Notes: generated by a model not told the origin, from the letters alone. Numbered from the stretch's first letter, positions 10,081 through 31,973 are shown. The stretch is DNA of 64,000 nucleotides from an uncultured Gammaproteobacteria bacterium (GCA_964616855.1 CAZTUJ010000001.1:192301-256300), one strand, 5' to 3'. Made by a program: numbers and translations.

Positions 10081-11103
10081 CTATTGATTATTATTTTGAA
10101 GATCGTGTTCCATCATAATTTTTACCAATTCTTTAAAACCTACTCGCGGTTGCCAATTTAATTGTTTCCTAGCTTTACTGCTGTCACCGATGAGTAGTTC
10201 TACTTCGGTGGGGCGGAAATATTTAGGGTCAATATCAATTAAAACTTTTCCGGAAAGGCGGTCCACTCCTTTTTCTTCTAAACCAGAGCCCTGCCATTCA
10301 ATTTGATAGCCGGCCAAAGCAAAGGCTTCCTCGCAAAATTCGCGGATACTGTGCGTTTCACCGGTGGCGATGACGTAGTCATCGGCTTTTTCTTGTTGAA
10401 GCATCAGCCACATGGCTTCGACGTAGTCCGGAGCATAGCCCCAGTCTCTTTTGGCGTCTAAATTACCTAAACTGATTTTTTCTTTTTTGCCTTGTTTAAT
10501 TTCCGTAATGCCAGTGGTGATTTTCCGGGTTACAAAAATCTTTCCCCGACGAGGCGATTCGTGGTTGAAGAGGATGCCGTTGCAAGCAAAGATATTATAG
10601 GCTTCACGGTGGTTGACCACGGTCCAGAAGGAGAAGAGCTTAGCCACTCCATAAGGTGAGCGCGGATAGAAAGGAGTTTTTTCAGTCTGAGGGGTTTCTT
10701 GAACCTTGCCAAAAAGTTCGGAAGTAGAAGCTTGATAGAATTTGGGTTTGATGCCGGCGTTTTTAATAGCATCTAATAGACGCAGGGTGCCGAGGCCATC
10801 AATCTCCGCTGTATATTCTGGAATCTGGAAAGAGATATGAACATGTGATTGGGCGCCGAGGTTATAGATTTCATCCGGCTGTATTTGTTCTAACAAACGG
10901 CTAAGATTGCTGGAGTCAATTAAATCACCGTAGTGAAGGTGAAAGCGGTCACCCCCAGTTTGTAAAATGTGATCAATCCTTTCAGTGTTAAAAACCGAAG
11001 AAGCGCGGCGAATACCGTGGACTTCATAGCCTTTTTCTAAGAGCAGTTCGGCCAGATAGGAACCATCTTGGCCGGTGATGCCGGTAATGAGAGCTTTTTT
11101 CAT
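10081..11103 (-). CDS. gmd: GDP-mannose 4,6-dehydratase
   Basis: [56 protein letters not shown] and [17 protein letters not shown] at 11103 is preferred over the GTG at 11121, which would overlap the upstream stop at 11114-11116. Confidence 0.9.
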
Positions 11104-11113
11104 ATTTTTTAAA

Positions 11114-12988
11114 TTAGGCACTTTTATCTTTCTTTTTAAATACTAAAGTGGCAAAGGCATAGCGGTGAGGTCCATATTGAAAATCTGGTTCAGGACAAGA
11201 CCAGTGCGGAGTATCAATGAGCTCGCAATCAGGGATGAGCTCCAGTAGCCTTATTTGTAAATCATTTTTTGTGTATAGCCTTTCATCCTCCATCGGTTTA
11301 TCCTGTCCTGCTTGCCAGTTTTCTAAATAATCACAGGTGATAATAGCTGTGCCGCCGGGTGCCAGGAGCGCGGCTATATCTTTGATAAAAGTTTCGTCAT
11401 CACCAACGTGTTCGATTACGGAAGTGGAAAAAATTAATTGGTAGGAATTGAGGATGGTTGTCGGTTTACTCATATATTCTCGTAAGGAATAATTGCTAAC
11501 CGGATCAATTTCTTCAATTTTAAGTCCCATTTTTTTCAAGCTCAAAGCGGCTGTGTCTTCGTAGCTGCCGACGCATAATATTTTTGAGGTAGTGTTTTCT
11601 GGGAGAAGGCGCCAGACAGTATCAAAAACAAAGGCTTGCTGTATATTGGCGGCGACAATTTTTTGGGCATAAATTTTTGGCGCCAAGAGAGATAACATTT
11701 TTTCCGCCGGAGCGTAGAGTTGCCTAGCCTTTTCATCAAGGATACGATTAAAGGAGTTATCGTTACCCAAGCTAATCGCTTGATATTTTATAGGAGCTAT
11801 TTCTATTTCAGTATTTTCTTCAGTCGCAGATGAGTCTCGTAGCCAAGAAAAATTTTCTTGAGGTTTTTGGAGTAAGCGGTAAACTTTGTTTTTAATTTTT
11901 CCGCGGATACTGATATTTTTTTCTGGGCGTTGATTAAAAATATTATTTAGAATGCGTTCATAGTCCCAGCATAAATTTTCTGGACTCCAATCTTGATATT
12001 TTTCCCAAAGAGGAGCGAAGCCGTTATTGGCAATTGTTAGTAAATCATTTTTTTCTACACAGATGGAGGGTTTAAGGTCGCGGATATGGCGGAACATGGA
12101 GCTGCTAGAAATGGCAATTGGTTTTTTTACCGACATTGCGACATCAACTGCACTAGATAGACCGCGGTCACCATTATCACCGTAGAGAAAGATATTAATA
12201 GTGTTGCCCGCTAGGAAGTTGCGCAATTGTTCGTCGTTTAAGAAATCGTGGGTAACGGTAAGTTTAATTTTTGGATTTTTAATTAAGGCTTGGCAATCTC
12301 TGGCAATTTTTCTAGCATTATCACCATTTTTATCAACAAAGTCGGCGCTAGGAATGTTGAATCTAATTAAAGCTTCGGGTAGGGTTTTTTCAGCGAGAGC
12401 GACAATCTTTCCAAAACCTTTATTGCTTGTACCGAAGCCAAAACTACCGATGGTGAAAATAGCGGGTGAGCCGCCGCCCTCATAGCGTTTAATCAATCTT
12501 CCTGTTTTGTAGACTAGAGGATTAAATAGTCGCAAAGATGGGTCGGGGGTGATGTAAAAATCAAATAGAGAGTTATTGAGCCGACGGTTGATTAAAAATT
12601 GATTGCGATAAGCGATGGCGTTATCAGCAACCGCTTGGGTCACTTCGTGAATAATACCAATCTGGGGAATTTTTATTTTACTAATTCTATTCCAGAATAA
12701 TCTTGGCAGTATTTTTTGGCTCAGCCAAGGCATTGTAATAGGATGGTAGTTATAGATGATACCGTCAGGCTGATGTTGTGCTATTAGTGCCTTTAACTCG
12801 TTGAGACTGGAGCATTCGGTGGGGATAAAATTATATTTTTGAGAAGATTGCAAAATATCAATAATATCTTTACCAAATTCATAAACCCCGCAATGGGTGC
12901 GGCGGTGAGAAACAAATAGTATTTTTTTATTATGGTTTAAAGGCTGTTCAAGATTATTCATAATCAAAAATTTATTGAGTTGCCCCAA
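11114..12988 (-). CDS. Two-domain protein: GT-B-like glycosyltransferase-like N-terminal region plus C-terminal class I SAM-dependent methyltransferase
   Basis: C-terminal aa ~465-560 carry [15 protein letters not shown] (a motif I-like block), [16 protein letters not shown] and [14 protein letters not shown]. The N-terminal ~350 aa have a Rossmann-like GT-B C-half pattern ([18 protein letters not shown]...[11 protein letters not shown]). Start is TTG at 12988 or ATG at 12961. Confidence 0.6.
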
Positions 12989-12989
12989 T

Positions 12990-14327
12990 TTATCTCCCCT
13001 CCCGCCCTAAGACGGTGGCAATCGTTTTTAGGGCGATGGTGGCGTCGAGATAGGGGGAGCGATGCTTAATATAATATAAGTCGTGCTGCAACTTTTTTAA
13101 AGTATCAACCGGGGAGGAGGAATGATATTCACCCGAAACTTGATCCCAGCCACTTAAGCCTGGTTTTACTAAGAGGCGGGTATTATAGAAAGGTAATTGT
13201 TTCTCCAACTCAGCCGAAAATTCTGGTCTTTCCGGACGCGGGCCGATAAAACTCATTTCACCTTTGATCACATTGATTAACTGGGGAATTTCGTCTAAGC
13301 GCGTGGAGCGCAGAAAAGAACCAATTGCGGTAATGCGGTTGTCGTTGATTGTCGTCATCGCGCCATCATTATTTTTTACCCGCATGGTCCGGAATTTATA
13401 TAATTTAAAAGCGCGGCCATTTTTACCAAGGCGCTCTTGAGTGAAGATGGCTGGTCCGGAGCTGCTTAGTTTTACCATTAAGGCAATTAGTGGCCAGAAA
13501 GGTAGGGAGAGCAAGAAGATAATAGCGGCCAGGATGAAGTCCAGGCTTTGTTTAAGAAAATCAAAATAATTTTTTTCACCTTCTTGCAGATTTTCTAGGA
13601 ACCAATCTTGATTAATACTTTCTACCGGCACCTCTTCATTGATTTGTTCATAAAAATTGGTGTAAGAAATGAAGCTAACGCGGTAGCGGAGCAGGGCAAA
13701 TAAACTACTACTAATCATTTCGTTTGCCCCTAAGTCGTCAGCCAGGACAACAATGCGGATATTTTTGGTGCGGATATTTTTTTCTAAATCGGCCAATTCT
13801 GCGGCGTGGCTGATTATTTGGACAATTTGATAACCTAAACCCGGTTTTTTAGCCAGGCTGGCCACTAGGGCAGCGGTTTTTTCATTGTTGCCGATAATGG
13901 CTAAGTTGTTTTGCCAGGCATTAGCACTAGCCAGCCAATAGGCCAGACGTCGCCATAACAAAAAAGCAGCCAAGGCGATGGCGGTAAAAATGGCTAGATT
14001 GGTTTTAGGGGCGATGTCCGCCCGGGGAAAGATATAGAAATAAAGGGCGGCCAGCAGGGAAGCAGCGATGACGCTATTGAAGGTGCGGCGGGTAAAGTTT
14101 TTAATCGCCGCCATTTGGCGGAGACTATAGAGACTATTGATATAAAAAACTAAAATAAAAATTACGAAGACACCAAAAAAATAGCGCCAATGTCCCTGCC
14201 AGTAGGGTGTTAAATCTTGTTGGCCATCAATTAGGCGGTAGCGCACAAACAGCGTTAAAGCTAAAGCGGCGTGGAGAATTAATAAATCTCCGGCTAAGAA
14301 GATTATTTTTTTCAGGCGATGTTTCAT
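12990..14327 (-). CDS. Polyprenyl-phosphate glycosyl-1-phosphate transferase (WbaP/bacterial sugar transferase family), initiating enzyme
   Basis: N-terminal TM helices plus a C-terminal bacterial sugar transferase domain (PAIFTQERLGKNGRAFKLYKFRTM, DEIPQLINVIKGEMSFIGPRPERPEF). ATG at 14327 (MKHRLKK) is preferred over the track start at 14372. Confidence 0.85.
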   Translation of the reverse strand: MKHRLKKIIFLAGDLLILHAALALTLFVRYRLIDGQQDLTPYWQGHWRYFFGVFVIFILVFYINSLYSLRQMAAIKNFTRRTFNSVIAASLLAALYFYIFPRADIAPKTNLAIFTAIALAAFLLWRRLAYWLASANAWQNNLAIIGNNEKTAALVASLAKKPGLGYQIVQIISHAAELADLEKNIRTKNIRIVVLADDLGANEMISSSLFALLRYRVSFISYTNFYEQINEEVPVESINQDWFLENLQEGEKNYFDFLKQSLDFILAAIIFLLSLPFWPLIALMVKLSSSGPAIFTQERLGKNGRAFKLYKFRTMRVKNNDGAMTTINDNRITAIGSFLRSTRLDEIPQLINVIKGEMSFIGPRPERPEFSAELEKQLPFYNTRLLVKPGLSGWDQVSGEYHSSSPVDTLKKLQHDLYYIKHRSPYLDATIALKTIATVLGREGR

Positions 14328-14412
14328 ATTTATGCCTAAATCATAGCAATAAAAATATGGAAAAGCAACCAAAAAAGAGCTCCTCGGTTTAGTGTTTTAA
14401 TTAGGGTTACTA

Positions 14413-14478: not shown

Positions 14479-15834
14479 ATGCTTAAATTCAATAAAAAAA
14501 CTTATATTTCTGCCTTTTTTGCCCTTTCCTTTTCCTTTTCCTTTTTAGGAATGTTTTTAATTAATATTAGCCAAGTAAAGGCTTTAAGCCCAGAAATTAA
14601 TCAAGTTAAAGTTCCTGGAGAAGCAACTGTTTATTATCTCAACCATGCTACCCATCAGCGCAAGGCTTATATTAATGAGGCCGTTTTTATCGATTACGGT
14701 AATACTTGGGAGGCAGTGCGAACTATTAGTCCGGAAGAATTAGCCAATTGGCCGGAAGCACAGTTAATTAAGACTGCTGATAGTGAAGATTTATATTATA
14801 TTCAAGAAGGCAAGAAGGTGAAAATTAAGAGTTATCAGGATATTATTGACTATAAATTAAGTTCAGTTCTACCTTTAACTGTGAGTGCTTTTGAATTATC
14901 TCAATACGAAGAGCAAGGCTCTTATCAAGAAACCGGATTGCTAAAAGCGCTAGGTTTAGAAATTTCTCAATCTTTAATTAATAATCAGCAATCGGGTAAT
15001 GTCTTAGTGCCGGGCACCCTGGATAACCAAGTGATGTTGCTTCACTTTCAGGCGCGTAACGAAGCCGTATCGGTGCAAAGTCTTCGTTTCAACTCCGGCG
15101 GCCTCTATGACTCTAAGCTAGTTGATGATATTTATTTAGTTAACGCTGCTACCGGGGAACGGTTAAAGGGTCATAGCACGGTACATGATCGTGAAGTGTC
15201 GCTTTATTTGAATCAAGGCGTTTTATTAATTCCAGCCGGTGCCACCGTTGATTTACGCGTTATGCTCGATCTTAAGAGTATTAGCAGCGTCGGCGGTCAA
15301 GATTTACGCTTGCAATTGCTTAGTGCCGATTCTATTGGTGCTTCCGCCGCCGCTACAGGCAATTTCCCTTTAGTTTCCTCTACCTTTTATATGGTGGAAG
15401 CTAATTCCATTCTTGGTCGGGTAGAAGCAACAGAGAATAGTTTGAATGGTAATGGTAGTGCCCGCAATCTCGGTGTTTTTACGCTTGCCGAAACTAGCGG
15501 CCAAGAAGATGTTTATATCAAAGAGATGGTCTTTAGTAACGAAGGTACGGCGGGACGTAATGATTTAGATACTTTTAAGCTGAAAAAAGATGGTAAAATA
15601 ATTGCTTCGGCTAAGACCATGGATCGTAATCGTCTTGTTTTTGATATCTCCTATCTCCGTATACCTGCCAACACCAGAGTCCAGTTGACGCTTAGCGCTA
15701 ATCTAACTAATGATTACCAGAGCCAGAGTGCGGTTGATTTAAGTCTAGAAAGACTAACGGCCGTGGGGCGGACTTATGAGTTTTCGCTCAGCCCCTTAAT
15801 TACCAATCTTCAAGAAAGCTTCCTCTTGCCATAA
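14479..15834 (+). CDS. Secreted/anchored hypothetical protein with N-terminal YYL-KR modules and repeated beta-rich domains
   Basis: N-terminal hydrophobic signal/anchor (ISAFFALSFSFSFLGMFLINISQVKA). Two short modules follow (TVYYLNHATHQRKAYI and DLYYIQEGKKVKI), then two similar beta-rich halves. No family was recognised. Confidence 0.6.
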   Translation: MLKFNKKTYISAFFALSFSFSFLGMFLINISQVKALSPEINQVKVPGEATVYYLNHATHQRKAYINEAVFIDYGNTWEAVRTISPEELANWPEAQLIKTADSEDLYYIQEGKKVKIKSYQDIIDYKLSSVLPLTVSAFELSQYEEQGSYQETGLLKALGLEISQSLINNQQSGNVLVPGTLDNQVMLLHFQARNEAVSVQSLRFNSGGLYDSKLVDDIYLVNAATGERLKGHSTVHDREVSLYLNQGVLLIPAGATVDLRVMLDLKSISSVGGQDLRLQLLSADSIGASAAATGNFPLVSSTFYMVEANSILGRVEATENSLNGNGSARNLGVFTLAETSGQEDVYIKEMVFSNEGTAGRNDLDTFKLKKDGKIIASAKTMDRNRLVFDISYLRIPANTRVQLTLSANLTNDYQSQSAVDLSLERLTAVGRTYEFSLSPLITNLQESFLLP

Positions 15835-15840
15835 TCGCTA

Positions 15841-15866
15841 AAAACAGGCACAAATGCCTGTTTTTT
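15841..15866 (+). terminator. Rho-independent terminator
   Basis: Stem caggca (15845-15850) pairs with tgcctg (15855-15860), with an A-run before it and a T6 tract (15861-15866) after it. Confidence 0.8.
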
Positions 15867-15868
15867 GT

Positions 15869-15897
15869 TTGGCGACAAGCCTAAGTTATGATATACT
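15869..15897 (+). promoter_or_regulatory. Candidate extended -10 promoter for the 15946 gene
   Basis: ttggcg (15869-15874), a 17-nt spacer, then TGaTATACT (tatact at 15892-15897). Confidence 0.5.
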
Positions 15898-15945
15898 AAA
15901 AAGAGCTTTCCAGCTGATAAATTTTTTAATTTTAGATTTAAATAT

Positions 15946-18747
15946 ATGTGCAGTCGGACCAAGTTTTCTCTTTTTGTCCTTGCTTTAGCCCTGGGCTTTT
16001 TCTTAGTGCCTTCGGCTCAGGCGGCTGTTTGCAACACCGATACTCAAATTAATCTGGTGGCACGTGACCCCGGAGGAGCTTATATCCCCGGAGTGAAGGC
16101 GGAATTGTATTATCAGGTTATTGATGCTAATGGTAAGCCTAAGCCCGGCAACCGGGCGGCGAGTGCGACCGCCAACGCCATGACTGGTATTGCTACTTTA
16201 AAATTCCGTAATAGTGCCGCCGAAAGCGGAGTTTACGCTTTGAAAATTCAGTCAATTACCAAAGATTTTACTAGTTTTTGGTATTATGGCTTAGAGCTAG
16301 CCTGTGGCCAGCAATTAAGCCTAGAGAAGACCCTTAGTGGCTTTAATTTTGTTATTCGCGATTATAATGGCGACCTGCTTTATAATACTAATTTTAATGT
16401 CTATACTCAGCGCTACGATGTTGATGGTAATCCGATAAAGCAAACTAAAGATTTAGTAGCGACTTTAAATACTGGTAGTAGCGGCGGCGCTAAGGCCTAC
16501 GTGCCTCAGGGCAGTGTCCGCAGCCTTGATGGTAGTCAGGGTGATTATTATGTCCTCGAGCTGACGCGCAATGGTAAAAAATTTGAACTCTACGGTCTTA
16601 AAGCCGTAGACACTTTATTAACTAACGTGGAATATTATTCCAGTGCTTTTAAGGTCACTTTACGTAGTTCGGCGGGAGCCCTTTTCCCGGGAAAGACTAA
16701 AGTAGAGGTCTATGAACAGATTGTGGATGAGGATGACAACGAGGCTAAAGGAGATAAGATTGGTGAGTTTCAGACTAATGATGATGGCTATGGTATCTTT
16801 GAAAATCCTTCCGGTGTTTATGTCCTGGGAGTAAAAGGAGATAATGGCCAGTATGACTACCTCTGGGATGTAGAAATTGCGGAAGGGCAGTTGAATGAAT
16901 ATGACTGGCAGGTTGGTTCTTCATGGGAGGCGGGCACAGAAACTTGTACGGAAAATTCCAAATTTACTTTAAACTTACTGGGTGTTGGCGGTGAGGTTCT
17001 TAGTGGCTTTAAATATGAGCTTTATGAGCAAGATGTTGATATTTATAGCCGGCCAACGGCAGGCAAGAAAATCGGCAGTGGCACGACCAATGTCTCTGGC
17101 CGAGCAGAATTAAGTTTTAAGCCCGATCCTCGTAAAAATTATGCTCTCAAGATTTATGACAAAAAGGCAGATTTAGGGGAATTCTGGTTTTTTAATGCCA
17201 TTCGTTTTACCTGTTCCTATGATCGCATCGTGACTAAGAGCTTGCCTTATTTGAAAATTATTTTACGCGATGGCGCGGGTAATTTGAAGAAAGATTTTTC
17301 TTTTTCTGTCTATGAGCAGTCCTTTGATGTTGATAATAAACCGGTAAAGGATGCTAAAAAACTGATTACTTCTTTAAAGACCGGTACTAATGGGACTGCC
17401 ATTTTGTATCTCGCTCCGGCTCATGCCTATGATCAAAATAAGCGCGGTCTTTATGTTTTTTCCGCGACTTTAAATAAGAGTGTTTTTGATGCTTATAATA
17501 TTGCTGTCACCGCTGACAAGAACGCGACCTTTGAATATATTTTTAGTGACCTCTCTGTTAGCGTTAAGACGGCCGCTGGTCAGGCGGTCGGTAATAAGGA
17601 TGTGCGCCTTTACGAACAGATTAAAAACGGTTCTAGTTACAGTTTAGGCAACTTGTTAAGCAGCGGTAAGACCGATAGTTCCGGCAACTTGCATTTAGAA
17701 TATCCCGCCGGTACTTATGCCCTAGTAGTCAGCGACGCCTTTAAACGCGACAATATTTTTTGGAACGCTATTTTGAAAGACCGTCAAGCTAACCGGGCGA
17801 CAATTAGTCTTAACGTAACGCGGGTATCTTTAGCCAGCACTTTAGGTGAGTTAATGCCGGCTGGGACTTTGCTTAAAATTTATTCTTTATATGAAAGCGA
17901 GGGCGCTTATTATAAAGATAAAGAAGTGGGTAGTGTTAAATTAGCCGCCAACAAACAGGGAGAGATACAATTGGCCGCTGGTCCTTATCTCATCTCCTAT
18001 ATTGATAAAACTAAGGGTGAGTTTGGTCAAGCTTTTTGGGCGCAGAATAATAAGATTCAGACCTTGAGCTTGAAGATGGATAAGAGCCAGCAGATTATTG
18101 CCGGCCAGAAGTTTAGTTTGAGCAAACCGGCTCTTTCTACTTTAAATATGATTGTTCCTGCCAGCAGCGCTCAAAACCAGACAGTGACGGCCAGTGGCTC
18201 CTTAAATAAGCGTTTAGCTGGCAATATTCTCTTACAAGTTGAGGATAAGGGACAGGCCTGGTATCTTAATCCCAAAGATTTGAAGCGTTATTATTTGGCT
18301 GATGGTGCGGCCGCTTATCAGATTATGCGTCGCGCTGGTGTCGGCATTACTGACGCTGACTTGCGTAAGATTCCTATTGGTATCGATAATCGTTTTGCCA
18401 AGAATGATAGCGACGGCGATCTTTTACCAGATGGTTTAGAGGTAGCGATTGGCACCGACCCCAAAGATAGTGATTCTGATAATGATTCTTATCTTGATGG
18501 CGAAGAATTACGCTCAGGCTTTAATCCTAGTGGTAAGGGTAGCCTGCACTTTGATTCTTCTTTTACCAATAACCAGAAGGGTAAGATTTTGTTACAAGTG
18601 GAGAAGAATGGTGAAGCTTGGTATGTTAGCCCCCAGGATGCTAAGCGTTATTATTTAGGAAATGGCGATTTAGCTTTTCAAATTATGCGCTACCTTAGCT
18701 TGGGTATTAGTAATAAGAATTTAGATAGCATCAGCGTCGGTCAATAA
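15946..18747 (+). CDS. Large secreted repeat protein (about seven ~100-aa beta-sandwich-like modules, an Asp-rich calcium-binding-like linker and a duplicated C-terminal module)
   Basis: Signal peptide FSLFVLALALGFFLVPSAQA/AV. The recurrent signature xxYEQ..D..G/N.P appears as AELYYQVIDANGKP, FNVYTQRYDVDGNP, VEVYEQIVDEDDNE, YELYEQDVDIYSRP, FSVYEQSFDVDNKP, VRLYEQIKNGSSY and LKIYSLYESEGAY. The linker reads DSDGDLLPDGLEVAIGTDPKDSDSDNDSYLDGEE. Confidence 0.75.
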   Translation: MCSRTKFSLFVLALALGFFLVPSAQAAVCNTDTQINLVARDPGGAYIPGVKAELYYQVIDANGKPKPGNRAASATANAMTGIATLKFRNSAAESGVYALKIQSITKDFTSFWYYGLELACGQQLSLEKTLSGFNFVIRDYNGDLLYNTNFNVYTQRYDVDGNPIKQTKDLVATLNTGSSGGAKAYVPQGSVRSLDGSQGDYYVLELTRNGKKFELYGLKAVDTLLTNVEYYSSAFKVTLRSSAGALFPGKTKVEVYEQIVDEDDNEAKGDKIGEFQTNDDGYGIFENPSGVYVLGVKGDNGQYDYLWDVEIAEGQLNEYDWQVGSSWEAGTETCTENSKFTLNLLGVGGEVLSGFKYELYEQDVDIYSRPTAGKKIGSGTTNVSGRAELSFKPDPRKNYALKIYDKKADLGEFWFFNAIRFTCSYDRIVTKSLPYLKIILRDGAGNLKKDFSFSVYEQSFDVDNKPVKDAKKLITSLKTGTNGTAILYLAPAHAYDQNKRGLYVFSATLNKSVFDAYNIAVTADKNATFEYIFSDLSVSVKTAAGQAVGNKDVRLYEQIKNGSSYSLGNLLSSGKTDSSGNLHLEYPAGTYALVVSDAFKRDNIFWNAILKDRQANRATISLNVTRVSLASTLGELMPAGTLLKIYSLYESEGAYYKDKEVGSVKLAANKQGEIQLAAGPYLISYIDKTKGEFGQAFWAQNNKIQTLSLKMDKSQQIIAGQKFSLSKPALSTLNMIVPASSAQNQTVTASGSLNKRLAGNILLQVEDKGQAWYLNPKDLKRYYLADGAAAYQIMRRAGVGITDADLRKIPIGIDNRFAKNDSDGDLLPDGLEVAIGTDPKDSDSDNDSYLDGEELRSGFNPSGKGSLHFDSSFTNNQKGKILLQVEKNGEAWYVSPQDAKRYYLGNGDLAFQIMRYLSLGISNKNLDSISVGQ
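16030..18060 (+). repeat. Coding tandem array of about seven divergent ~100-aa modules
   Basis: The Y-E/T-Q...D..N/G.P signature listed above recurs about every 100 aa. The repeats are visible at the protein level only. Confidence 0.6.
18220..18744 (+). repeat. Duplicated ~55-aa C-terminal module (18220-18383 and 18580-18744) flanking an Asp-rich linker (18403-18511)
   Basis: GNILLQVEDKGQAWYLNPKDLKRYYLADGAAAYQIMRRAGVGITDADLRKIPIG aligns with GKILLQVEKNGEAWYVSPQDAKRYYLGNGDLAFQIMRYLSLGISNKNLDSISVG. Confidence 0.8.
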
Positions 18748-22954: not shown

Positions 22955-22981
22955 ATAAAATTATTCATTTATTACCTGTGG

Positions 22982-23010
22982 AAAACAGACGCCTTCTGCG
23001 TCTGTTTTTT
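22982..23010 (+). terminator. Rho-independent terminator ending the holB-to-hpf block
   Basis: Stem cagacgc (22986-22992) pairs with gcgtctg (22998-23004) around a 5-nt loop, followed by a T6 tract (23005-23010). Confidence 0.8.
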
Positions 23011-23033: not shown

Positions 23034-23092
23034 TTGCTCGCATACACAATATATAGTATAATAGTTATTAATTATCACACTATATGTTGATA
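23034..23092 (+). promoter_or_regulatory. Candidate nrd promoter overlapped by two NrdR-box-like palindromes
   Basis: Box 1, acacaatatatagtat (23044-23059), matches the published NrdR-box consensus (approximately acaCwAtATaTwGtgt) at 15 of 16 positions by eye. Box 2 is weaker: acactatatgttgata at 23077-23092 matches 12 of 16, or the register two nt upstream. A possible -35 ttgctc (23034-23039) sits 17 nt upstream of TATAAT (23057-23062), which overlaps box 1. Confidence 0.55.
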
Positions 23093-23121: not shown

Positions 23122-24426
23122 ATGAATCAAGCAAGCGTAAATAATGATAAATACCACTTTTTGGTGCAGAAAAGGAACGGATCAGTTGTTCCTTTTAATC
23201 TGGATAAAATTGGTAATGCTATTTTTAAGGCCGCGGCCGCTACTGGCCTAGAGTCGCGGGAAGAGGCTGACAGCTTAGCTCTTCAAGTCGCTGATAAATT
23301 ATTGGCTCAGGCGACGGGTGAAACCGCTGCTTTTTGCCCCTCGGTAGAAAGTATCCAAGACTTGGTGGAGGAAGTGTTAATGGCCAGTCCTTTTCCAGAA
23401 GTCGCTAAAGCCTATATCCTCTATCGTGAAAAAAGAGCAGCCATGAGAAGGCGTGATCTTTTTAAGAAAAGAGTTAATTTAAAACCCTACGAGTATCCGG
23501 AGCTTTATGAATATGTCAGCGCCATTCGCCATTCTTATTGGATTCATACAGAATTCAATTATTTGAGTGATATTCAGGATTTTAAAACGGCTGTTAATGA
23601 AGCCGAGCGTCACGCCATTAAGCATTCAATGTTGGCGATTGCTCAGATTGAAGTGGCGGTCAAAGCTTTCTGGGGCGATATTTATAAAAAAATACCAAAA
23701 CCGGAAGTGGCAGCGGTGGGCTTTACTTTTGCCGAAAGCGAAGTGCGCCACATGGATGCCTATTCCCACCTTTTAGAAATTCTCGGTTTGAACGAAGAGT
23801 TTGCCAAGATTAAAGAAATGCCTGTCTTGATGGAGCGGGTGGAGTATTTGGAGAATGCGGTCAGTACGGCCAAGAGCGAAGAAGATAAAGATTATGCTTT
23901 AGCTATTCTGTTGTTCTCTCTTTTTATTGAACATGTTTCTCTTTTTTCTCAATTCTTAATCATGATGTCTTTTAATAAGCATCGGAATTTGTTTAAGGGT
24001 ATTTCCAATGCTGTTGAAGCGACCTCTAAAGAAGAGCAGATTCACGGCCTTTTCGGTATTGAAGTGATTAATTTAATTAAGACCGAGCACCCGGAGTGGT
24101 TTGATGATGATTTTAAGGGCCAGATTCTCCAAGCTTGCCGCCGCGCTTTTGAGTCAGAACAGAAAGTAGTCGATTGGATTTTAGAAAAAGGCGAACTGGA
24201 TTTCTTGCCTAAAGCGGTCATTATTGAATTTATTAAAAACCGTCTCAATAATTCCTTAGCTAGCATCGGCTTAGAACGGATTTTCACAGTTGACGATAAA
24301 TTGCTGGAACAGACGGAGTGGTTTGATGAAGAAGTGGTCACCACCAAGCATGGCGATTTCTTCGTGAAGCGCTCGATTAACTATAACAAGCGGAGTCAAA
24401 GCATTACCGGCGATGATCTGTTTTAA
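23122..24426 (+). CDS. nrdB: Class I ribonucleotide reductase beta (radical-generating) subunit with N-terminal ATP-cone
   Basis: aa ~13-108 form an ATP-cone (FLVQKRNGSVVPFNLDKIGNAIFKA...VAKAYILYREKRAAMRRR). The ferritin-like core has metal ligand blocks AESEVRHMDAYSH (ExxH plus a Tyr 4 residues after the His), LFIEHVSLFSQF and SKEEQIHGLFG. Confidence 0.85.
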   Translation: MNQASVNNDKYHFLVQKRNGSVVPFNLDKIGNAIFKAAAATGLESREEADSLALQVADKLLAQATGETAAFCPSVESIQDLVEEVLMASPFPEVAKAYILYREKRAAMRRRDLFKKRVNLKPYEYPELYEYVSAIRHSYWIHTEFNYLSDIQDFKTAVNEAERHAIKHSMLAIAQIEVAVKAFWGDIYKKIPKPEVAAVGFTFAESEVRHMDAYSHLLEILGLNEEFAKIKEMPVLMERVEYLENAVSTAKSEEDKDYALAILLFSLFIEHVSLFSQFLIMMSFNKHRNLFKGISNAVEATSKEEQIHGLFGIEVINLIKTEHPEWFDDDFKGQILQACRRAFESEQKVVDWILEKGELDFLPKAVIIEFIKNRLNNSLASIGLERIFTVDDKLLEQTEWFDEEVVTTKHGDFFVKRSINYNKRSQSITGDDLF

Positions 24427-24456
24427 TTCTTTTATTAATTTTAAATTATATTTTTT

Positions 24457-26136
24457 ATGCAATGGTTAAATGAATATTCACGGTCTTTCTTAGCAAAAGG
24501 CTATCTTAATAAAGGAACAGACGCCGAGCAGCGGATTAGAGATATTGCTAATAGCGCGGAAAAGATTTTAAATAAGCCCGGTTTTGCCGATAAATTTTAT
24601 GACTATATGTCTCGTGGCTACTATTCTCTGGCCTCGCCCATCTGGTCTAATTTCGGCCTGTCCAAGGGTTTCCCTATTAGCTGTTTTTCCTCTTATTTAG
24701 GAGATGATATGGGCCAGATTCTCTTTACCCAAGCAGAAGTGGGTATGATGAGTAAGTATGGCGGGGGTACGGCTGGCTATTTCGGAGACTTGCGGGGCCG
24801 GGGTACGGCTATTAAAGATAACGGCACCTCCTCAGGGGCGGTACATTTTATGCAACTCTTTGAAACCCTGGTTAATGTTGTTAGCCAAGGTTCAGTCCGC
24901 CGCGGTCACTTCGCTCCTTATTTGCCGGTGGAGCACCCTGATATTGAAGAGTTCCTGAATTTGGGTACAGAAGGTAACTCCATTCAAGAGATGACCTACG
25001 GTGTTACTGTAAGTGACCAGTGGCTTACAGATATGGAAAATGGCGACAGTCAGAAGCGGGCCATCTGGGCGAAGATTTTACAGAGACGCAGCCAGATGGG
25101 CTACCCTTATATCTTTTTTACCGATACAGTTAATAACAACACTGTTGATGTTTATAAGGATAAGAAACTGAAAATTAACGCCAGTAATCTTTGTTCGGAA
25201 ATATTGTTACCCTCTAATGAGCAGTGGTCCTTTGTGTGCGATCTTTCTTCTTTAAATCTCCTTTACTATGATGATTGGAAAAATACGGATGCCGTGGAAA
25301 CTTTGGTATATTTCTTAGATGCCGTCATGAGTGATTTTATTAGCCGCTTGGAAGAAATGCGCGACAGTAATGATTCCCGCAAACAGCAGTCCTTTACTTT
25401 TATGAAGAGAGCTTATGATTTTGCTACCCAGAATCGGGCTTTAGGTTTAGGGGTTTTGGGTTGGCACTCTTTATTGCAGAGCAAGATGATGCCTTTAGAT
25501 AGTCGGGAGAGCGCCCGTTTGAATGTGGCAATTTTCAAAGATATCCAAGAGCAGGCCTACGCCGCTTCGAAGAAGATGGCGCTTGAATACGGCGAGCCGG
25601 AAGTTTTAAAGGGTTATGGTCGCCGTAATACTACTTTAATGGCGATCGCTCCGACCACCTCTTCCGCTTTTATTTTAGGTCAGGTTTCCCAGAGCATTGA
25701 GCCGATTTGGTCTAACTGCTACGTTAAAGATATTGATAAGATGAAGGTGACAATTAAGAATAAGCAACTAGAGAAATTATTAGAAGAAAAAGGACAGAAT
25801 TCTAAAGAGGTTTGGGCAAGTATTCGTGATAATGATGGTTCAGTTCAGCAGCTATCTTTTTTAAGTCCAGAGGAGAAGGAAATCTTTAAGACTTTCCAGG
25901 AAATTAGCCAGAAGGTTATTATTGAGCATGCGGCCGCCCGTCAAGCCTATATTGATCAGGGTCAATCTCTCAACTTAGCTATCAATCCGGCTGTCCCCGC
26001 TAAGGAAATTAACGCTTTATATATGTATGCCTGGAAGTTGGGCATTAAGACCCTTTACTACCAGCACAGCATTAATGCCGCTCAACAGTTCGGGCGTTTA
26101 AAAGATTTACAGAATTGTCAGTCTTGCCAGTCCTAG
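24457..26136 (+). CDS. nrdA: Class I ribonucleotide reductase alpha subunit, short form without ATP-cone
   Basis: 559 aa. Active-site blocks are FPISCFSS, INASNLCSEILLP (Asn-x-Cys-x-Glu) and FVCDLSSLNL, with a C-terminal redox pair CQSCQS. No ATP-cone-like N-terminus is present. Confidence 0.85.
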   Translation: MQWLNEYSRSFLAKGYLNKGTDAEQRIRDIANSAEKILNKPGFADKFYDYMSRGYYSLASPIWSNFGLSKGFPISCFSSYLGDDMGQILFTQAEVGMMSKYGGGTAGYFGDLRGRGTAIKDNGTSSGAVHFMQLFETLVNVVSQGSVRRGHFAPYLPVEHPDIEEFLNLGTEGNSIQEMTYGVTVSDQWLTDMENGDSQKRAIWAKILQRRSQMGYPYIFFTDTVNNNTVDVYKDKKLKINASNLCSEILLPSNEQWSFVCDLSSLNLLYYDDWKNTDAVETLVYFLDAVMSDFISRLEEMRDSNDSRKQQSFTFMKRAYDFATQNRALGLGVLGWHSLLQSKMMPLDSRESARLNVAIFKDIQEQAYAASKKMALEYGEPEVLKGYGRRNTTLMAIAPTTSSAFILGQVSQSIEPIWSNCYVKDIDKMKVTIKNKQLEKLLEEKGQNSKEVWASIRDNDGSVQQLSFLSPEEKEIFKTFQEISQKVIIEHAAARQAYIDQGQSLNLAINPAVPAKEINALYMYAWKLGIKTLYYQHSINAAQQFGRLKDLQNCQSCQS

Positions 26137-26144
26137 AATATATG

Positions 26145-26181
26145 AAAAATCCGCGCTTTGTTAAAAGTCGCGGATTTTTTT
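26145..26181. terminator. Hairpin terminator between convergent nrdA and small membrane gene
   Basis: Stem atccgcg (26149-26155) pairs with cgcggat (26169-26175), with additional inner pairing, an A5 run upstream and a T7 run downstream. Confidence 0.75.
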
Positions 26182-26202: not shown

Positions 26203-26466
26203 TTATTCTTTTTTTACCCTTATTAACCCCAGCATCAAACCAATAAGACTGGCGGCGAGGTTGGGGTAGGAAATACCCGGCCAGATTCCAATGGCTAGTC
26301 CGAGAAAGACGAGAAATAGAATTACCAGGGAAAAAATGAAAAAACCTTTTAATGCCGCTTTTGATTTTAATGTAAGCAGGCGAATGCTTGTACCGATGAT
26401 TATGCTGACGGTCAGCATGCCAGCAATAATCCATAATTGCCAGAGTTCAAAATTTTCTACTAACAT
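26203..26466 (-). CDS. Small hypothetical membrane protein (87 aa, about 3 TM helices)
   Basis: Hydrophobic segments WQLWIIAGMLTVSIIIG, GFFIFSLVILFLVFLGLAIGIW and LAASLIGLMLGLI. The terminator lies downstream. No family was recognised. Confidence 0.45.
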   Translation of the reverse strand: MLVENFELWQLWIIAGMLTVSIIIGTSIRLLTLKSKAALKGFFIFSLVILFLVFLGLAIGIWPGISYPNLAASLIGLMLGLIRVKKE

Positions 26467-26619: not shown

Positions 26620-29364
26620 ATGAATATCTTGAACAAAATTCTAGGTGATCCTAATGATAAAATCATTAAAGAAATCAGGAAAGTTGTTGATAAAATCAAT
26701 GTTCTAGAGACTGATTTTCAGGCTTTAGAATTGACTCAACTGCAGGAAAAAACCGCTGATTTTAAAGAAAGATTGAAAGCAGGCACCAGTTTGGATGAAC
26801 TTTTACCGGAAGCTTTTGCTAATATGCGCGAGGCCTCACGGCGGATTTTAGGTCAGCGTCATTATGATGTCCAGTTGATTGGTGGTATTGTTTTGCACCG
26901 TGGCCAGATTGCGGAAATGAAAACCGGTGAAGGTAAGACTTTGGTGGCCACTTTGCCTTTATATTTAAACGCCTTAGAAGGTAAGGGGGTACACTTAATC
27001 ACCGTTAATGACTATTTGGCCCGAATTGGTGCTGGTTGGATGGCCCCTCTCTATTTTGCTCTTGGTTTAAGCACTAGTGTCATTGTTCATGACGCTGCTT
27101 TTCAGTATGACCCGGAATATAACGACGAGAGTCAGTATGATGAGCGCTTGCGCCATTTCCGTCCTATTTCCCGTCGGGCCGCCTATTATTGCGATATTAC
27201 TTACGGTACTAATAATGAATTTGGTTTCGATTATCTGCGCGACAATATGGCCTATAGCCTAGATCAAACTGTCCAGCGCTCTTTGCATTATGCCATCGTT
27301 GATGAAATTGATTCTATCTTAATTGATGAAGCTCGCACCCCTTTGATTATTAGCGCTCCTGCCGAAGAGTCGGGTGATAAGTATTTGAAATTTTCACAGT
27401 TGGTGCAGAGATTGACTGAAAATGAAGATTATAATGTTGATGAAAAATTAAAAGCTGCTACTTTAACCGAAGCTGGTATTAATAAGATTGAAGAATGGTT
27501 AGGCGTCGGTAATATTTATGTTACTGGTGGCGTTAAAGATGTTCATCACCTTGAGCAAGCTTTGAAGGCGATGGTTTTATTCCATCGTGACCGTGACTAT
27601 GTCGTTAAAGACGGGGAAATTATCATCGTTGATGAATTTACCGGCCGCATGATGCCAGGACGGCGCTATAGCGAAGGCTTGCATCAGGCAATTGAAGCTA
27701 AAGAAGGGGTTAAGGTGCAGAAAGAATCGCAGACCATGGCCACCATTACCTTCCAGAATCTATTTCGTATGTACGGCAAGCTTGCTGGTATGACCGGTAC
27801 AGCTTTAACCGAGGCGGAAGAATTTTTCAAAATATATAAATTAGAAACAGTCGTTATCCCGACCAATAAGCCCAACGTCCGTAAAGATTTAAATGATTTA
27901 ATCTATCGCACGGAAGAAGATAAGTTCACAGCTGTTATTAAAGAAATCAAAAGACGTAATGAATTAGGCCAGCCGATTCTCATTGGTACAATTTCCATTG
28001 AAAAGAATGAAATTTTAGCGGGGATGATGGAGAGGGAAGGTTTGCGTCCACAAATGTTGAACGCTAAAAATCACCAGAAAGAAGCGGAGATCATTTCTCA
28101 GGCGGGACGTCCGGGGGCTATCACGCTAGCCACGAATATGGCCGGACGTGGCGTCGATATTATTTTAGGAGGTAATCCCGATGCTGACGATGTCGCTGCC
28201 ATCGCTGTTGCCAAAGAAGAACAGGAACGAGTCCGGGCTTTAGGTGGCCTGCATGTTATTGGTACCGAGCGTCATGAATCTCGTCGTATTGATAATCAGT
28301 TGCGTGGTCGCGCTGGTCGTCAAGGCGATCCTGGCTCTTCCCAATTCTATGTTTCTACCGATGATGACTTGATGCGTATTTTTGGTGGTGACCGGATGAA
28401 ATCAATGATGAAGACTTTGAAATTACCGCCAGATGTACCGATTGAAAATGGCATGATTTCCAAGTCTTTAGAATCCGCTCAGAAGAAGGTGGAAGGTAAT
28501 AACTTTGATATCAGAAAACATTTAGTTGAATATGATGATGTGATTAATAAGCACCGGGAGGCTATCTATCGCCGCCGCCGGGAAATTTTGGAAGCGGCTG
28601 AACTTGATACCGAAGCAAATAGGGCTGTTCCTTTGGAGAAATTTGGGGCAATGGTTAAAGTCCAGGTTGATGAAGAAATTGCTAAAATTGTTAGCTTCCA
28701 TACCGCCGGTGATAAAGCGGAGGAATGGAACTTGGCAGAGATTGCCGAAACGATGCGAGCAATGTTCAACGCCGGTCCAGAGTTAATGGAGAAGTTAAAG
28801 ACTATTGCTGGGGCGGGTAATGATGAGGGCCGTCAGGCTGTGCTTGATTATTTGAAACAAAGCGCCGTCGACGCCTATAGCGCTTTGGTAGAAAAATTTG
28901 CTCAAGCCAATATTGATTTTGCTGATGTTGCTAAAGGGATGCTTTTACGCTCGATTGATCAGATGTGGGTTGAGCATTTAGAGACCATGGATTATATGCG
29001 CCGTGGTATCGGTTTACGCGGCTATGGCCAGCGCGATCCCTTGGTGGAGTATAAGCGGGAAGCTTTCCGGATGTATCATGAATTGCTCGATCTTATCCGC
29101 CAGCAATTAGTCTATTCTGTTTATCGCACAGCGGACGCTTTGCAAATGGCCCCAGCCGCTCTTTTAAAGTTAGGAGAAAGCGAGCAGCCTAAGAATTTAC
29201 GCTTGGAGGGCGCACCCAAAGAAATGGAAAAATTAAGTGCCAAGCGCGATAACTTTGATTTAGTCAGAGAAAAAGCTAAGGATGAATCTGGCCGCACTAT
29301 TGGTCGCAATGATCCCTGTCCTTGTGGGAGTGGGAAGAAATATAAGAAATGTTGTGGAAAATAA
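26620..29364 (+). CDS. secA: Preprotein translocase ATPase SecA
   Basis: MKTGEGKTLVATLP (Walker A), the DEID block (VDEIDSILIDEARTPLIIS), TNMAGRGVDI, and the C-terminal zinc motif CPCGSGKKYKKCCG. Confidence 0.95.
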   Translation: MNILNKILGDPNDKIIKEIRKVVDKINVLETDFQALELTQLQEKTADFKERLKAGTSLDELLPEAFANMREASRRILGQRHYDVQLIGGIVLHRGQIAEMKTGEGKTLVATLPLYLNALEGKGVHLITVNDYLARIGAGWMAPLYFALGLSTSVIVHDAAFQYDPEYNDESQYDERLRHFRPISRRAAYYCDITYGTNNEFGFDYLRDNMAYSLDQTVQRSLHYAIVDEIDSILIDEARTPLIISAPAEESGDKYLKFSQLVQRLTENEDYNVDEKLKAATLTEAGINKIEEWLGVGNIYVTGGVKDVHHLEQALKAMVLFHRDRDYVVKDGEIIIVDEFTGRMMPGRRYSEGLHQAIEAKEGVKVQKESQTMATITFQNLFRMYGKLAGMTGTALTEAEEFFKIYKLETVVIPTNKPNVRKDLNDLIYRTEEDKFTAVIKEIKRRNELGQPILIGTISIEKNEILAGMMEREGLRPQMLNAKNHQKEAEIISQAGRPGAITLATNMAGRGVDIILGGNPDADDVAAIAVAKEEQERVRALGGLHVIGTERHESRRIDNQLRGRAGRQGDPGSSQFYVSTDDDLMRIFGGDRMKSMMKTLKLPPDVPIENGMISKSLESAQKKVEGNNFDIRKHLVEYDDVINKHREAIYRRRREILEAAELDTEANRAVPLEKFGAMVKVQVDEEIAKIVSFHTAGDKAEEWNLAEIAETMRAMFNAGPELMEKLKTIAGAGNDEGRQAVLDYLKQSAVDAYSALVEKFAQANIDFADVAKGMLLRSIDQMWVEHLETMDYMRRGIGLRGYGQRDPLVEYKREAFRMYHELLDLIRQQLVYSVYRTADALQMAPAALLKLGESEQPKNLRLEGAPKEMEKLSAKRDNFDLVREKAKDESGRTIGRNDPCPCGSGKKYKKCCGK

Positions 29365-29368
29365 ATAT

Positions 29369-29782
29369 ATGAAAATTTGTAGTGCATGTCTATTGGGGGT
29401 TAAATGTCGCTACGATAATAAAGGCAAGGCAAACGAGAAGATATTAGAATTATCAAAAAGAGAAGTCTTGATTCCTATTTGTCCCGAGCAATTAGGTGGC
29501 TTACCAACTCCGAGGGAAGCCGCCGAACAAATGGGTAAAAAGATTATTACAAAATCAGGGGAAGATGTTACGGATAGTTTTAAGAAAGGCGCTAAGGAAG
29601 TCTTAAAGATAGCTAAGCTATACGGTATTAAGGAAGCAATCCTGAAACAAAAAAGTCCTTCTTGTGGGTGCGGTCAGGTTTATGATGGGGGTTTTTCCGG
29701 GAAAATTATTAAGGGCAATGGTATTACAGCCTCTTTATTAGAAAAGAATGGGATTAAAATAATGACTGAGGAAGATTTATAA
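29369..29782 (+). CDS. DUF523 family protein (2-thiouracil desulfurase TudS-like)
   Basis: MKICSACLLGVKCRYDNKG...PICPEQLGGLPTPR...KSPSCG is the conserved Cys pattern of DUF523. ATG at 29369; the track start at 29282 overlaps secA. Confidence 0.65.
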   Translation: MKICSACLLGVKCRYDNKGKANEKILELSKREVLIPICPEQLGGLPTPREAAEQMGKKIITKSGEDVTDSFKKGAKEVLKIAKLYGIKEAILKQKSPSCGCGQVYDGGFSGKIIKGNGITASLLEKNGIKIMTEEDL

Positions 29783-29834: not shown

Positions 29835-30290
29835 ATGAATTATTCTCTAAGTAAAGAAGCCTCTAAATCTTTTATTCAATTTTTTTCAGCTTCCTGGCTA
29901 GCTTTTATTGGCCTCTCTCCTTATTTCTTAGTGGCGATGGCCTTGATTGATTTAAATGCTGACTTCGGTTTTGCCTTATATGGTATTCTGTTTGATTATT
30001 TAAGTATCCCGTTTGCCTTAGTAGTTATTTTCTTTATTTTTAAAAAGAATTTGCTCAGAGTTGATTTTTTTAAAAAGTTTGTGGCGGAAAATGTTAAGAA
30101 AGTTTTTCTATCCGGAGTCATCCTTTTTTACTTAATCAGCTTTATTTCCATTATTATTAATATCAATAGTTTTTTTCCAGTCTTAATGATTGTTTTCTTT
30201 TCATTTTTTGCCTTTCCCTTTATGTGGGTCTTATTAAAATTTGGTTATAATTTTTTTAAGAGGATGAATGACTCCATTAAAGATATTTAA
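29835..30290 (+). CDS. Hypothetical polytopic membrane protein
   Basis: 151 aa, very AT-rich, with 4 hydrophobic segments. No family was recognised. Confidence 0.45.
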   Translation: MNYSLSKEASKSFIQFFSASWLAFIGLSPYFLVAMALIDLNADFGFALYGILFDYLSIPFALVVIFFIFKKNLLRVDFFKKFVAENVKKVFLSGVILFYLISFISIIININSFFPVLMIVFFSFFAFPFMWVLLKFGYNFFKRMNDSIKDI

Positions 30291-31316: not shown

Positions 31317-31973
31317 ATGTCTGAAAAGCAATTAAATTTTCTTAATATCTTTGAAACTTCTAAAAAAGAAGAGGCGTCTTCATCTGAATCGGAATATTTA
31401 GTTAAAAATGGAGAGAACGATTATGAAGATCCGCTCGTTTTTGATTTAGAGGAAAAAAGATTAAGGGAGGAAGCAGAATTAATTTCTCGAAAAGAAAGAG
31501 AAAAGAATGAATTAGAATTAAAACGAAGTCAGCGCCAGCGATTATTAGATTCTCATTCACCTCGTCACCCATCTGATTTTCAGTCCGTCTTACCAGAAAT
31601 ACAGCAGTATGCCGAGAGATCGCGTTCATATCGTGCTGTTTATGAAAGTTCTTCTCCAGAGCAAAAATCAGAGCTTTATCCACGCTTAGTTTGGCCAGAT
31701 ACTTACGAAGAGCCGGAATATCGCGAAAGTGCCCGCCTTTATATTAATTATCTAGAAGCAGTAAAGAGGGAAAGGGAAGAACAATCCGAGAATAAAATGA
31801 AATCCTCATTTTCAAAAAAGAAGAAGGAGAAGAAGACGTTGACTCCTACTAAGAAGCAGGAAAAAGTTATTATTAGAAGATCATTAGTCGAAGCTGATGC
31901 CCAGGAGGATGATGACGCACCCAATCCTTATGGCGATATCTATCCTTATAGTCGAAATTGGCGCTCTAAGTAA
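31317..31973 (+). CDS. Hypothetical highly charged (E/K/R/S-rich) probably disordered protein
   Basis: 218 aa with no hydrophobic core segments, low-complexity runs (KKKKEKK, REREEQSE) and scattered Tyr/Pro motifs. Confidence 0.5.
   Translation: MSEKQLNFLNIFETSKKEEASSSESEYLVKNGENDYEDPLVFDLEEKRLREEAELISRKEREKNELELKRSQRQRLLDSHSPRHPSDFQSVLPEIQQYAERSRSYRAVYESSSPEQKSELYPRLVWPDTYEEPEYRESARLYINYLEAVKREREEQSENKMKSSFSKKKKEKKTLTPTKKQEKVIIRRSLVEADAQEDDDAPNPYGDIYPYSRNWRSK

Follow-up and report, generated by a model that had tools for sequence, protein, structure and literature searches.

The closest described counterpart of the system examined here is the class Id ribonucleotide reductase (RNR) NrdAi/NrdBi of Leeuwenhoekiella blandensis (PDB 5OLK, 6SF4 and 6SF5; Rozman Grinberg et al. 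2018 eLife, 2019 JBIC; Hasan et al. 2021), a member of the Flavobacteriaceae that additionally has a class II RNR. Its radical-generating (beta) subunit NrdB comprises an ATP-cone, a short linker, a ferritin core and a flexible tail, and nrdB precedes nrdA. In contrast, the class Id beta subunits of Flavobacterium johnsoniae and Aggregatibacter actinomycetemcomitans (6CWO/6CWP/6CWQ, 8DQ3) have no ATP-cone and hence lack cone-based control of overall activity, whilst Facklamia ignava NrdB joins a glutaredoxin domain and an ATP-cone to NrdBi. The class Id catalytic (alpha) subunits of Actinobacillus ureae and F. johnsoniae (6DQX, 6DQW) are minimal and cone-less with a C-terminal CxxC. Cones that bind two nucleotides are also known from Pseudomonas aeruginosa NrdA (5IM3) and Prevotella copri NrdD (8P23), where they sit on the catalytic subunit; the dATP-induced cone-cone contacts in P. 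aeruginosa are of the same kind as those in L. blandensis (PMC5794259). We analysed a stretch of 64,000 nt (GCA_964616855.1, CAZTUJ010000001.1:192301-256300; hereafter the window, in whose coordinates all positions are given) that carries an ordinary, self-contained operon of two genes, nrdB and nrdA, encoding an aerobic RNR of class Id (NrdAi/NrdBi). We consider it highly probable that this is a class Id operon with a dimanganese cofactor, an ATP-cone switch on the beta subunit and probable repression by NrdR, residing on the chromosome of a member of the Patescibacteria (candidate phyla radiation, CPR). Relatives retrieved for comparison are given L-numbers (genome loci such as L003-L008; viral contigs from IMG/VR, L083-L162).

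The original prediction, made by a model reading the DNA, had placed nrdB and then nrdA at 23122-26136, and both open reading frames (ORFs) proved real with exactly those boundaries, on the plus strand and separated by 30 nt (Table 1). It had also described an ATP-cone at about amino acids (aa) 13-108 of NrdB, ahead of a ferritin-like core. Pfam PF03477 matched aa 15-106 with 85 bits (cut-off 25.8; E 5.2e-24), spanning profile positions 3-87 of 88 with only 14 residues ahead of it, and the core followed at aa 117-391; there was no glutaredoxin domain of the kind seen in F. ignava. The best PDB match of NrdB was the cone-bearing L. blandensis protein (5OLK, E 3.5e-185), aligned over aa 15-434 with 65 % identity across 420 positions (47 % in the cone, 70 % in the core). 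The other top solved relatives, 6SF4/6SF5, 8DQ3, 6CWO/6CWP/6CWQ and 8DQ4/8DQ5, were all class Id beta subunits. For NrdA, the claim of a minimal, cone-less protein held, as a Pfam scan returned no PF03477 match in its 559 aa, whilst the claim that it begins directly with the catalytic barrel did not, since a weak but above-threshold PF00317 N-terminal all-alpha domain occupied aa 4-70 (30.9 bits against 28) in addition to the barrel (E 1.5e-98). NrdA passed the NCBIfam class Id alpha equivalog TIGR02510 at 745.2 bits (cut-off 602.25), with aa 2-558 on model positions 16-559 of 560, and its best solved relatives were the class Id alpha structures 6DQX (E 9.7e-212) and 6DQW (E 6.3e-177). With such E-values against 5OLK and 6DQX, the architecture is not a chance result, and the L. 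blandensis precedent invoked by the original prediction is borne out. An AlphaFold2 model of NrdB, built with 32 homologues (mean predicted local distance difference test score, pLDDT, 76.6), superposed on all four chains of 5OLK over 392-394 columns including the cone (target-normalised template modelling score, TM, 0.87-0.93). Its ferritin-like R2 fold matched class Id beta structures at TM 0.91-0.94; the cone-less F. johnsoniae and A. actinomycetemcomitans proteins, with cores 41-55 % identical to that of the window, gave TM 0.91-0.93.

Class Id enzymes universally carry a Tyr at the radical position, and their hallmark is the pairing of this Tyr with a Glu rather than an Asp as first metal ligand. 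A Trp in helix B is strictly conserved, the characterized Mn2(IV,III) subgroup has a Lys three residues earlier that points towards the metals, and a Thr hydrogen-bonds the Tyr, holding it about 7 Å from Mn1 (PMC6754362, PMC8463856). Inspection of the alignment recovered every one of these residues in the window NrdB, whose numbering is that of L. blandensis plus 7. The six metal ligands E177, E207, H210, E270, E305 and H308 (E170, E200, H203, E263, E298 and H301 in L. blandensis) follow the order E/E/H/E/E/H with Glu first, Y214 (Y207) stands at the radical position, and K181, W184 and T301 (K174, W177 and T294) form the Lys/Trp/Thr signature of the Mn2(IV,III) subgroup. All ten positions were invariant in 76 full-length relatives. 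The original prediction had pointed out the motif ESEVRHMDAYS, in which E207 and H210 make up the ExxH and Y214 lies four residues past the His, and had judged the cofactor type undecidable from the sequence; with the full signature present, that judgement was too cautious. On the basis of the identity to L. blandensis NrdB and the complete set of signature residues, we assign the window enzyme by homology a putative Mn2(IV,III) cofactor, the one demonstrated in the enzymes of L. blandensis, F. ignava and F. johnsoniae. No gene for NrdI was present next to the operon, where only nrdB, nrdA and one small membrane-protein ORF lie between hpf and secA, and no flavodoxin-like match turned up in the window ORFs of at least 150 aa. 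The C-terminal tail of NrdB was near-identical to that of L. blandensis, with Y421 and F434 invariant among relatives, and by analogy with class I RNRs in general it would bind the alpha subunit and take part in radical transfer.

The motifs VxKRxG, KIxxAI, VExIQDxVExxLM and VAKxYIxYRxxRA are common to the solved two-nucleotide cones of 5OLK, 5IM3 and 8P23, and they mark the window cone as the same subtype. Across 76 sequences, K17, R18, F25, K29, Q79, D80, E83, M87, K96, Y98, I99, Y101, R102 and R109 were invariant or nearly so. The nucleotide-binding set common to the three structures comprises K17 and R18 (the KR motif), K29, I30, Q79, D80, E83, Y98, Y101, R102 and R109, the last being the counterpart of L. 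blandensis R102, which contacts the gamma-phosphate (PMC5794259, PMC8350387). In L. blandensis the dATP-induced cone-cone interface and an internal salt bridge involve D73, an acidic residue at 76 (Asp76 in the paper, Glu in the 5OLK sequence), M80, K89, I92, I93 and R95 (PMC5794259). Their counterparts in the window, D80, E83, M87, K96, I99, L100 and R102, were conserved in 72-76 of the 76 sequences, position 100 being Leu or Ile. The modelled cone folds as a beta-hairpin (strands 14-16 and 22-24) plus four helices (27-40, 46-63, 75-88 and 92-109), with pLDDT of 79-92 over the block, and aligns with 5OLK throughout. Compared with the closest relative, L003 (96 % aa identity), the ratio of nonsynonymous to synonymous substitution rates (dN/dS) was 0.059 for the cone and 0.008 for the core at a dS of about 0.8-1.1, so the cone is both translated and constrained.

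An in-frame TAA lies four codons 5′ of the nrdB start codon. This ATG is not preceded by a Shine-Dalgarno sequence, and an SD-like motif 7-16 nt upstream was found in only four of 48 window genes. Most of the 48 starts examined across positions 1-64000 instead follow an AT-rich context of the 'AATTT' type, of which the nrdB start is typical, and translation initiation in this organism seems to do largely without pairing to a Shine-Dalgarno sequence. The cone had been predicted to fall if its nucleotide-binding residues were missing or if the true start lay downstream; the conserved motifs are kept, and no start past the cone is favoured.

NrdA carries C76, N244, C246, E248 and C261, a Y534-Y535 pair and a C-terminal C554xxC557, features drawn from the 6DQX alignment and secondary citations. 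All nine positions, including the Tyr-Tyr pair, align with 6DQX, and the eight that were counted (Y534 not among them) were conserved in 70-73 of 73 relatives. Through equivalence with E. coli numbering, we take these residues to be the catalytic Cys/Asn/Cys/Glu/Cys and the Tyr-Tyr pair of the radical-transfer path. The length of the protein is in keeping with the reported class Id alpha median of about 565 aa (PMC9531940), and its lack of a cone likewise fits that class. The NrdAs of CPR genomes, that of the window included, are without an N-terminal extension of about 41 residues that brings flavobacterial NrdA to about 596-601 aa and is reportedly disordered in L. blandensis (PMC5794259, PMC8350387).

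Metal, oxidant, nucleotide binding, tetramerization and NrdR repression are assigned by homology, and with published precedents (PMC5794259, PMC8350387) the enzyme may be expected to work as follows. The cone-less alpha2 would reduce ribonucleoside diphosphates through a cysteinyl radical, and the C-terminal CxxC pair would re-reduce the active site. In beta2, Mn(II)2 would react with an oxidant, most likely superoxide, to give a stable Mn2(IV,III) centre without the help of NrdI. This centre, not a tyrosyl radical, would start radical transfer, with Thr301 presumably holding Tyr214 off the metals. When ATP occupies the cone, beta would remain a dimer and join alpha2 as active alpha2beta2. With dATP, two molecules per cone, the cones would pair through helices 3 and 4 to form a beta4 tetramer. 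This beta4 would bind alpha2 only in quasi-symmetric, non-productive alpha2beta4 or alpha4beta4 complexes, which would be unable to take up the asymmetric geometry competent for radical transfer. NrdR, if present, would add transcriptional repression as dATP rises, so that the dATP/ATP ratio would be sensed twice through ATP-cones.

The boundaries of the transcription unit are set by two intrinsic-terminator hairpins with U-tracts (Table 1). The upstream one, belonging to hpf, has a 13-bp stem and a 5-nt loop (folding energy −16.7 kcal/mol, z −5.09) and is conserved in an alignment of relatives; the one after nrdA reached −19.3 kcal/mol (z −5.83). None of 200 shuffled sequences folded as well in either case. 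Between the upstream hairpin and nrdB we placed a putative promoter, inferred from a conserved TATAAT: this hexamer and the TTG of the upstream hexamer were invariant in five aligned relatives. A simple promoter and terminator scan reported neither the two hairpins, which folding confirmed, nor the promoter, the latter because the putative −35 hexamer matches the consensus at just three of six positions. Rfam and tRNA scans of the window gave no matches, so nrdB is not preceded by any known riboswitch or leader RNA.

Two NrdR-box-like sites overlap or follow this promoter. Box 1 was the only site in the 64 kb that came within two mismatches of the NrdR-box consensus, and L003, L005 and L008 carry the identical 16-mer ahead of nrdB. 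Box 2, offset from box 1 by 33 bp, keeps the C of box position 4 and the G of position 13 and is conserved in L003, L004, L005 and L008, although alone it would not reach significance. The 17-bp spacer falls within the 14-17 bp found experimentally to be functional for four NrdR proteins (PMC12051234). In the same four loci the promoter-box segment was near-invariant despite saturated synonymous sites in the coding sequence. Of 80 regions upstream of nrdB, 13 (the window and 12 retrieved loci) had a box with three or fewer mismatches, against an expectation of 0.004 per region, or about 0.3 over 80 regions; the scannable flavobacterial loci had none upstream of nrdB. A search of the window, and of the flanks up to 10 kb from nrdB in the 80 genome loci, revealed no nrdR-like ORF (Zn-ribbon plus cone). 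The box patterns suggest that nrdBA is probably repressed by NrdR at two putative boxes overlapping the promoter.

Table 1. Coordinates of the nrdB-nrdA operon, its protein domains and its flanking signals in the 64,000-nt window
Feature	Position	Strand	Details
Intrinsic-terminator hairpin of hpf, 5′ boundary of the nrdBA unit	22980..23010	+	Folding
Putative sigma-70-type promoter	23034..23062	+	TTGCTC (23034-23039), 17-nt spacer, TATAAT (23057-23062)
NrdR-box-like palindrome 1, ACACAATATATAGTAT	23044..23059	+	One mismatch to ACACWATATATWGTGT; overlaps the −10 hexamer
NrdR-box-like site 2, ACACTATATGTTGATA	23077..23092	+	Four mismatches; 17-bp spacer after box 1
nrdB, class Id radical-generating subunit (NrdBi)	23122..24426	+	434 aa, ATG start, N-terminal ATP-cone
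ATP-cone domain of NrdB (aa 15-106)	23164..23439	+	PF03477
Ferritin-like metal-binding core of NrdB (aa 117-391)	23470..24294	+	PF00268 Ribonuc_red_sm, E 1.4e-57
NrdB flexible C-terminal tail (aa 403-434)	24328..24423	+	Y421 and terminal SITGDDLF; pLDDT < 50
nrdA, class Id catalytic subunit (NrdAi)	24457..26136	+	559 aa, ATG start, no ATP-cone
Intrinsic-terminator hairpin after nrdA, operon end	26144..26180	+	Folding, U-tract

The named closest homologues belong to Patescibacteria (Falkowbacteria, Parcubacteria, Paceibacteria, Saccharibacteria, Nomurabacteria and Kerfeldbacteria), and the MreB of the window falls into one 90 % cluster with Parcubacteria/Patescibacteria proteins. Judged by these homologues, the MreB cluster and synteny, the host is a Patescibacteria (CPR) bacterium and not a flavobacterium. 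The window otherwise holds housekeeping genes: BipA, glycosyltransferase clusters, holB, frr, rseP and hpf in addition to nrdB-nrdA, with secA, ileS, ruvA, proS, mreBCD, mraY, ftsW, murG and murC on the 3′ side of the operon. The order holB-frr-rseP-hpf-nrdB-nrdA-secA was kept in L003, L004, L006 and L008, whose NrdBs are 76-96 % identical to that of the window, and the 4.9-kb contig L005 keeps rseP-hpf-nrdB-nrdA. The guanine-cytosine (GC) content of the locus, 0.40-0.43, matches its uniform surroundings. The operon is a stably inherited chromosomal locus and not recent mobile cargo. A Pfam scan of window ORFs of at least 150 aa (plus hpf) returned no second RNR, NrdR, NrdI, thioredoxin or glutaredoxin, and a CxxC motif scan of ORFs of at least 50 aa likewise gave none of them; these searches cover 64 kb, about a tenth of the genome.

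Relatives with the same architecture were abundant. Identity among the 120 best protein clusters ranged from 57 to 96 %, with a single one below 66 %, and both domains were present in each apart from one apparent truncated gene call. From 588 GTDB species-representative stretches encoding relatives, 80 loci were retrieved by similarity to the CPR query, and in all 80 a cone-bearing nrdB precedes a cone-less nrdA, whose product measures 556-601 aa if the gene is complete on its contig. Their record titles name 31 Patescibacteria, 35 Bacteroidota (mostly Flavobacteriaceae), nine 'uncultured bacterium', three archaeal-labelled metagenome-assembled genomes (MAGs) and two others. Among the best 80 of 302 IMG/VR stretches encoding relatives, 76 were cone-bearing, mostly with a 568-aa NrdA 7-25 nt downstream. 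Of the four cone-less viral loci, the two included in the tree (L092 and L124) fall between cone-bearing sequences, a placement suggestive of secondary loss of the cone. The description of the arrangement as uncommon was accurate for RefSeq in 2018, with its 93 cone-bearing NrdB sequences (PMC5794259), and no longer fits these counts: the cone-on-beta design is widespread in Patescibacteria/CPR and phages, and not rare. An outgroup-rooted neighbour-joining tree of the core domain grouped the window with L003-L008 (bootstrap 100) and recovered Flavobacteria as monophyletic (95), whereas the CPR group received just 40/100, and we therefore make no claim on the branching between CPR and Flavobacteria. 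A transfer from CPR to Flavobacteriia, considered when the flavobacterial cone-NrdBs appeared nested within CPR on a midpoint-rooted full-length neighbour-joining tree, was lost on the outgroup-rooted core tree. The set of loci is also biased, having been selected by similarity to a CPR query.

Several of the retrieved loci had features of their own. In L033, L042, L053, L054 and L064, all 'uncultured bacterium' MAGs with a GC content of about 35 %, nrdB (about 9941-11260) is broken within the cone by one in-frame TGA, with the normal TAG or TAA stop further on, and nrdA is likewise split under translation table 11; NrdR-like boxes lie upstream. The pattern fits lineages in which UGA encodes an amino acid (code 25-like). 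Bacterial-type cone-nrdB genes were also found in L031, L040 and L067, which are binned as archaea (Methanosarcinales and Woesearchaeota MAGs), with nrdA next in L040 and L067. L031 and L067 have NrdR-like boxes and branch beside a Peregrinibacteria sequence. They represent either CPR DNA assigned to the wrong bin or a transfer into DPANN archaea. In the Kerfeldbacteria MAG L014, a class II B12-dependent NrdJ (7225-9717, plus strand; NF006417, 1138.6 bits against a cut-off of 961) lies directly upstream of cone-nrdB/nrdA, so that RNRs of two classes are encoded next to each other in one CPR genome. This agrees with the published generalization of 2018 that every species with a cone-NrdB also encodes another RNR (PMC5794259).

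Some points weigh against the reading of the locus as a cone-switched, NrdR-repressed class Id operon. The cone evolves about five times faster than the core (dN) and is the less identical part in comparison with L. blandensis, so its oligomeric output could differ in detail. Conservation of the full dATP-contact set is deduced from motif identity across 5OLK, 5IM3 and 8P23 rather than from a per-residue check. The second NrdR box is weak and the window holds no nrdR gene. Finally, dependence on superoxide sits oddly with a lineage usually regarded as fermentative, and we identified no superoxide source. The first of these points, together with the secondary cone losses in viral relatives, would be expected if the cone were present without acting as a dATP off-switch, either as a structural relic or with an output other than the L. 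blandensis beta4. Against this stand the low dN/dS of the cone, nucleotide-binding and described interface residues that are conserved or conservatively replaced in 76 sequences, and retention of the cone in all 80 genome loci, and we regard this explanation as unlikely. The idea that translation truly starts past the cone, at Met87 or Met108, to give a cone-less NrdB draws on the lack of a Shine-Dalgarno sequence before the annotated ATG and on a cone-less database protein, P0031 (348 aa, 89 % identical over 80 % of the query). SD-like motifs are however rare across the window, and the AT-rich context of this start is typical. The codons of the cone are moreover under strong purifying selection, every relative keeps a conserved, in-frame cone, and the promoter and boxes lie upstream of the annotated start; a downstream start is accordingly the least probable of the alternatives and can almost be dismissed. 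P0031 was set aside as evidence, as 348 is 434 minus 86, the length of a gene call from Met87, and we take it to be a likely gene-calling artefact.

The Tyr at the canonical radical position would also suit a different cofactor, that is, a diiron or dimanganese centre with a tyrosyl radical (class Ia/Ib-like) or a Mn/Fe centre (class Ic-like). The first ligand is however Glu, where classes Ia and Ib have Asp, and class Ic carries Phe and not Tyr at the radical position. With K181, W184 and T301 invariant, the nearest solved structures all class Id and no adjacent nrdI gene, another cofactor is very unlikely. As for origin, the many viral contigs with relatives, their largely cone-bearing NrdBs usually followed directly by nrdA, and the few viral sequences that branch within the CPR group might indicate that the operon is recently acquired phage or mobile cargo and not the housekeeping RNR of the host. 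The matching GC content, the core housekeeping genes on both sides and a frr-rseP-hpf-nrdB-nrdA-secA order that persists in relatives down to 76 % NrdB identity speak against this, as do a closest viral relative of just 64 % identity and a lack of integrase or phage genes among the window genes. No attachment sites were seen, nor any sister genome in which hpf adjoins secA and the operon is missing, and we give recent acquisition slightly less credence still than a different cofactor. A chromosomal class Id operon with a functional cone on NrdB remains the reading we prefer.

The mechanism by which such an RNR is regulated has already been described, and the locus adds no new regulatory biology. 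What is mildly new is its context: the spread across Patescibacteria/CPR and phages, the conserved synteny and the probable NrdR boxes. What the literature presented as a largely flavobacterial oddity, the class Id enzyme with its cone on beta, appears here as a stable syntenic operon in a Patescibacteria lineage, and the literature searched contained no paper on class Id or cone-NrdB enzymes in CPR bacteria. The lineage is usually regarded as fermentative, and the predicted enzyme would place an oxygen- or superoxide-dependent manganese RNR in organisms generally held to be anaerobic fermenters. The locus would also apparently pair an ATP-cone sensor that acts at the promoter, NrdR, with another on the enzyme itself, the cone of NrdB; NrdR-box-like sites are present in the window and related CPR loci and in none of the scannable flavobacterial loci. 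A bolder proposition, which we find rather doubtful, is that this cone-regulated, superoxide-activated Mn2 class Id enzyme is the only RNR of the genome (roughly 0.63 Mb) and that Patescibacteria and their phages, not Flavobacteriia, are the main reservoir of the cone-on-beta design. If it were the sole RNR, the 2018 generalization would be contradicted, and the deoxynucleotide (dNTP) supply of a supposedly fermentative episymbiont would hinge on oxygen or superoxide and on manganese.

Other features of the window were noted alongside the operon. The small ORF between nrdA and secA (26203-26466, minus strand) encodes an 87-aa hydrophobic protein with apparently several membrane-spanning stretches, and L003 has a conserved counterpart in the equivalent place (E 6e-34). 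Within 41503-43905 and 47334-48341, mreC and mreD are accompanied by two MreB paralogues of 348 and 335 aa, each scoring about 450 bits with PF06723, notable rod-shape machinery for a bacterium with an ultra-small genome. The ORFs at 29282-29782 and 51524-52714 overlap the ends of the preceding genes (secA and a subtilase gene, respectively); their Pfam domains start at aa 33 and aa 68, and the true starts are probably at about 29378 and 51725. Sizeable ORFs with no or only a sub-threshold Pfam family lie at 14479-18747 (plus strand) and at 29835-30290, 31317-31973 and 63352-63984 (minus strand); among them are ORFs of 451 aa and 933 aa just upstream of holB, the latter with a weak bacterial TSP3 repeat only. 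Roughly one third of the window is taken up by clusters of glycosyltransferase, sugar dehydratase/epimerase and C-methyltransferase-type genes at 3939-14372 (minus strand) and 43937-54997. GC skew was positive throughout the window, and most genes lie on the plus strand.

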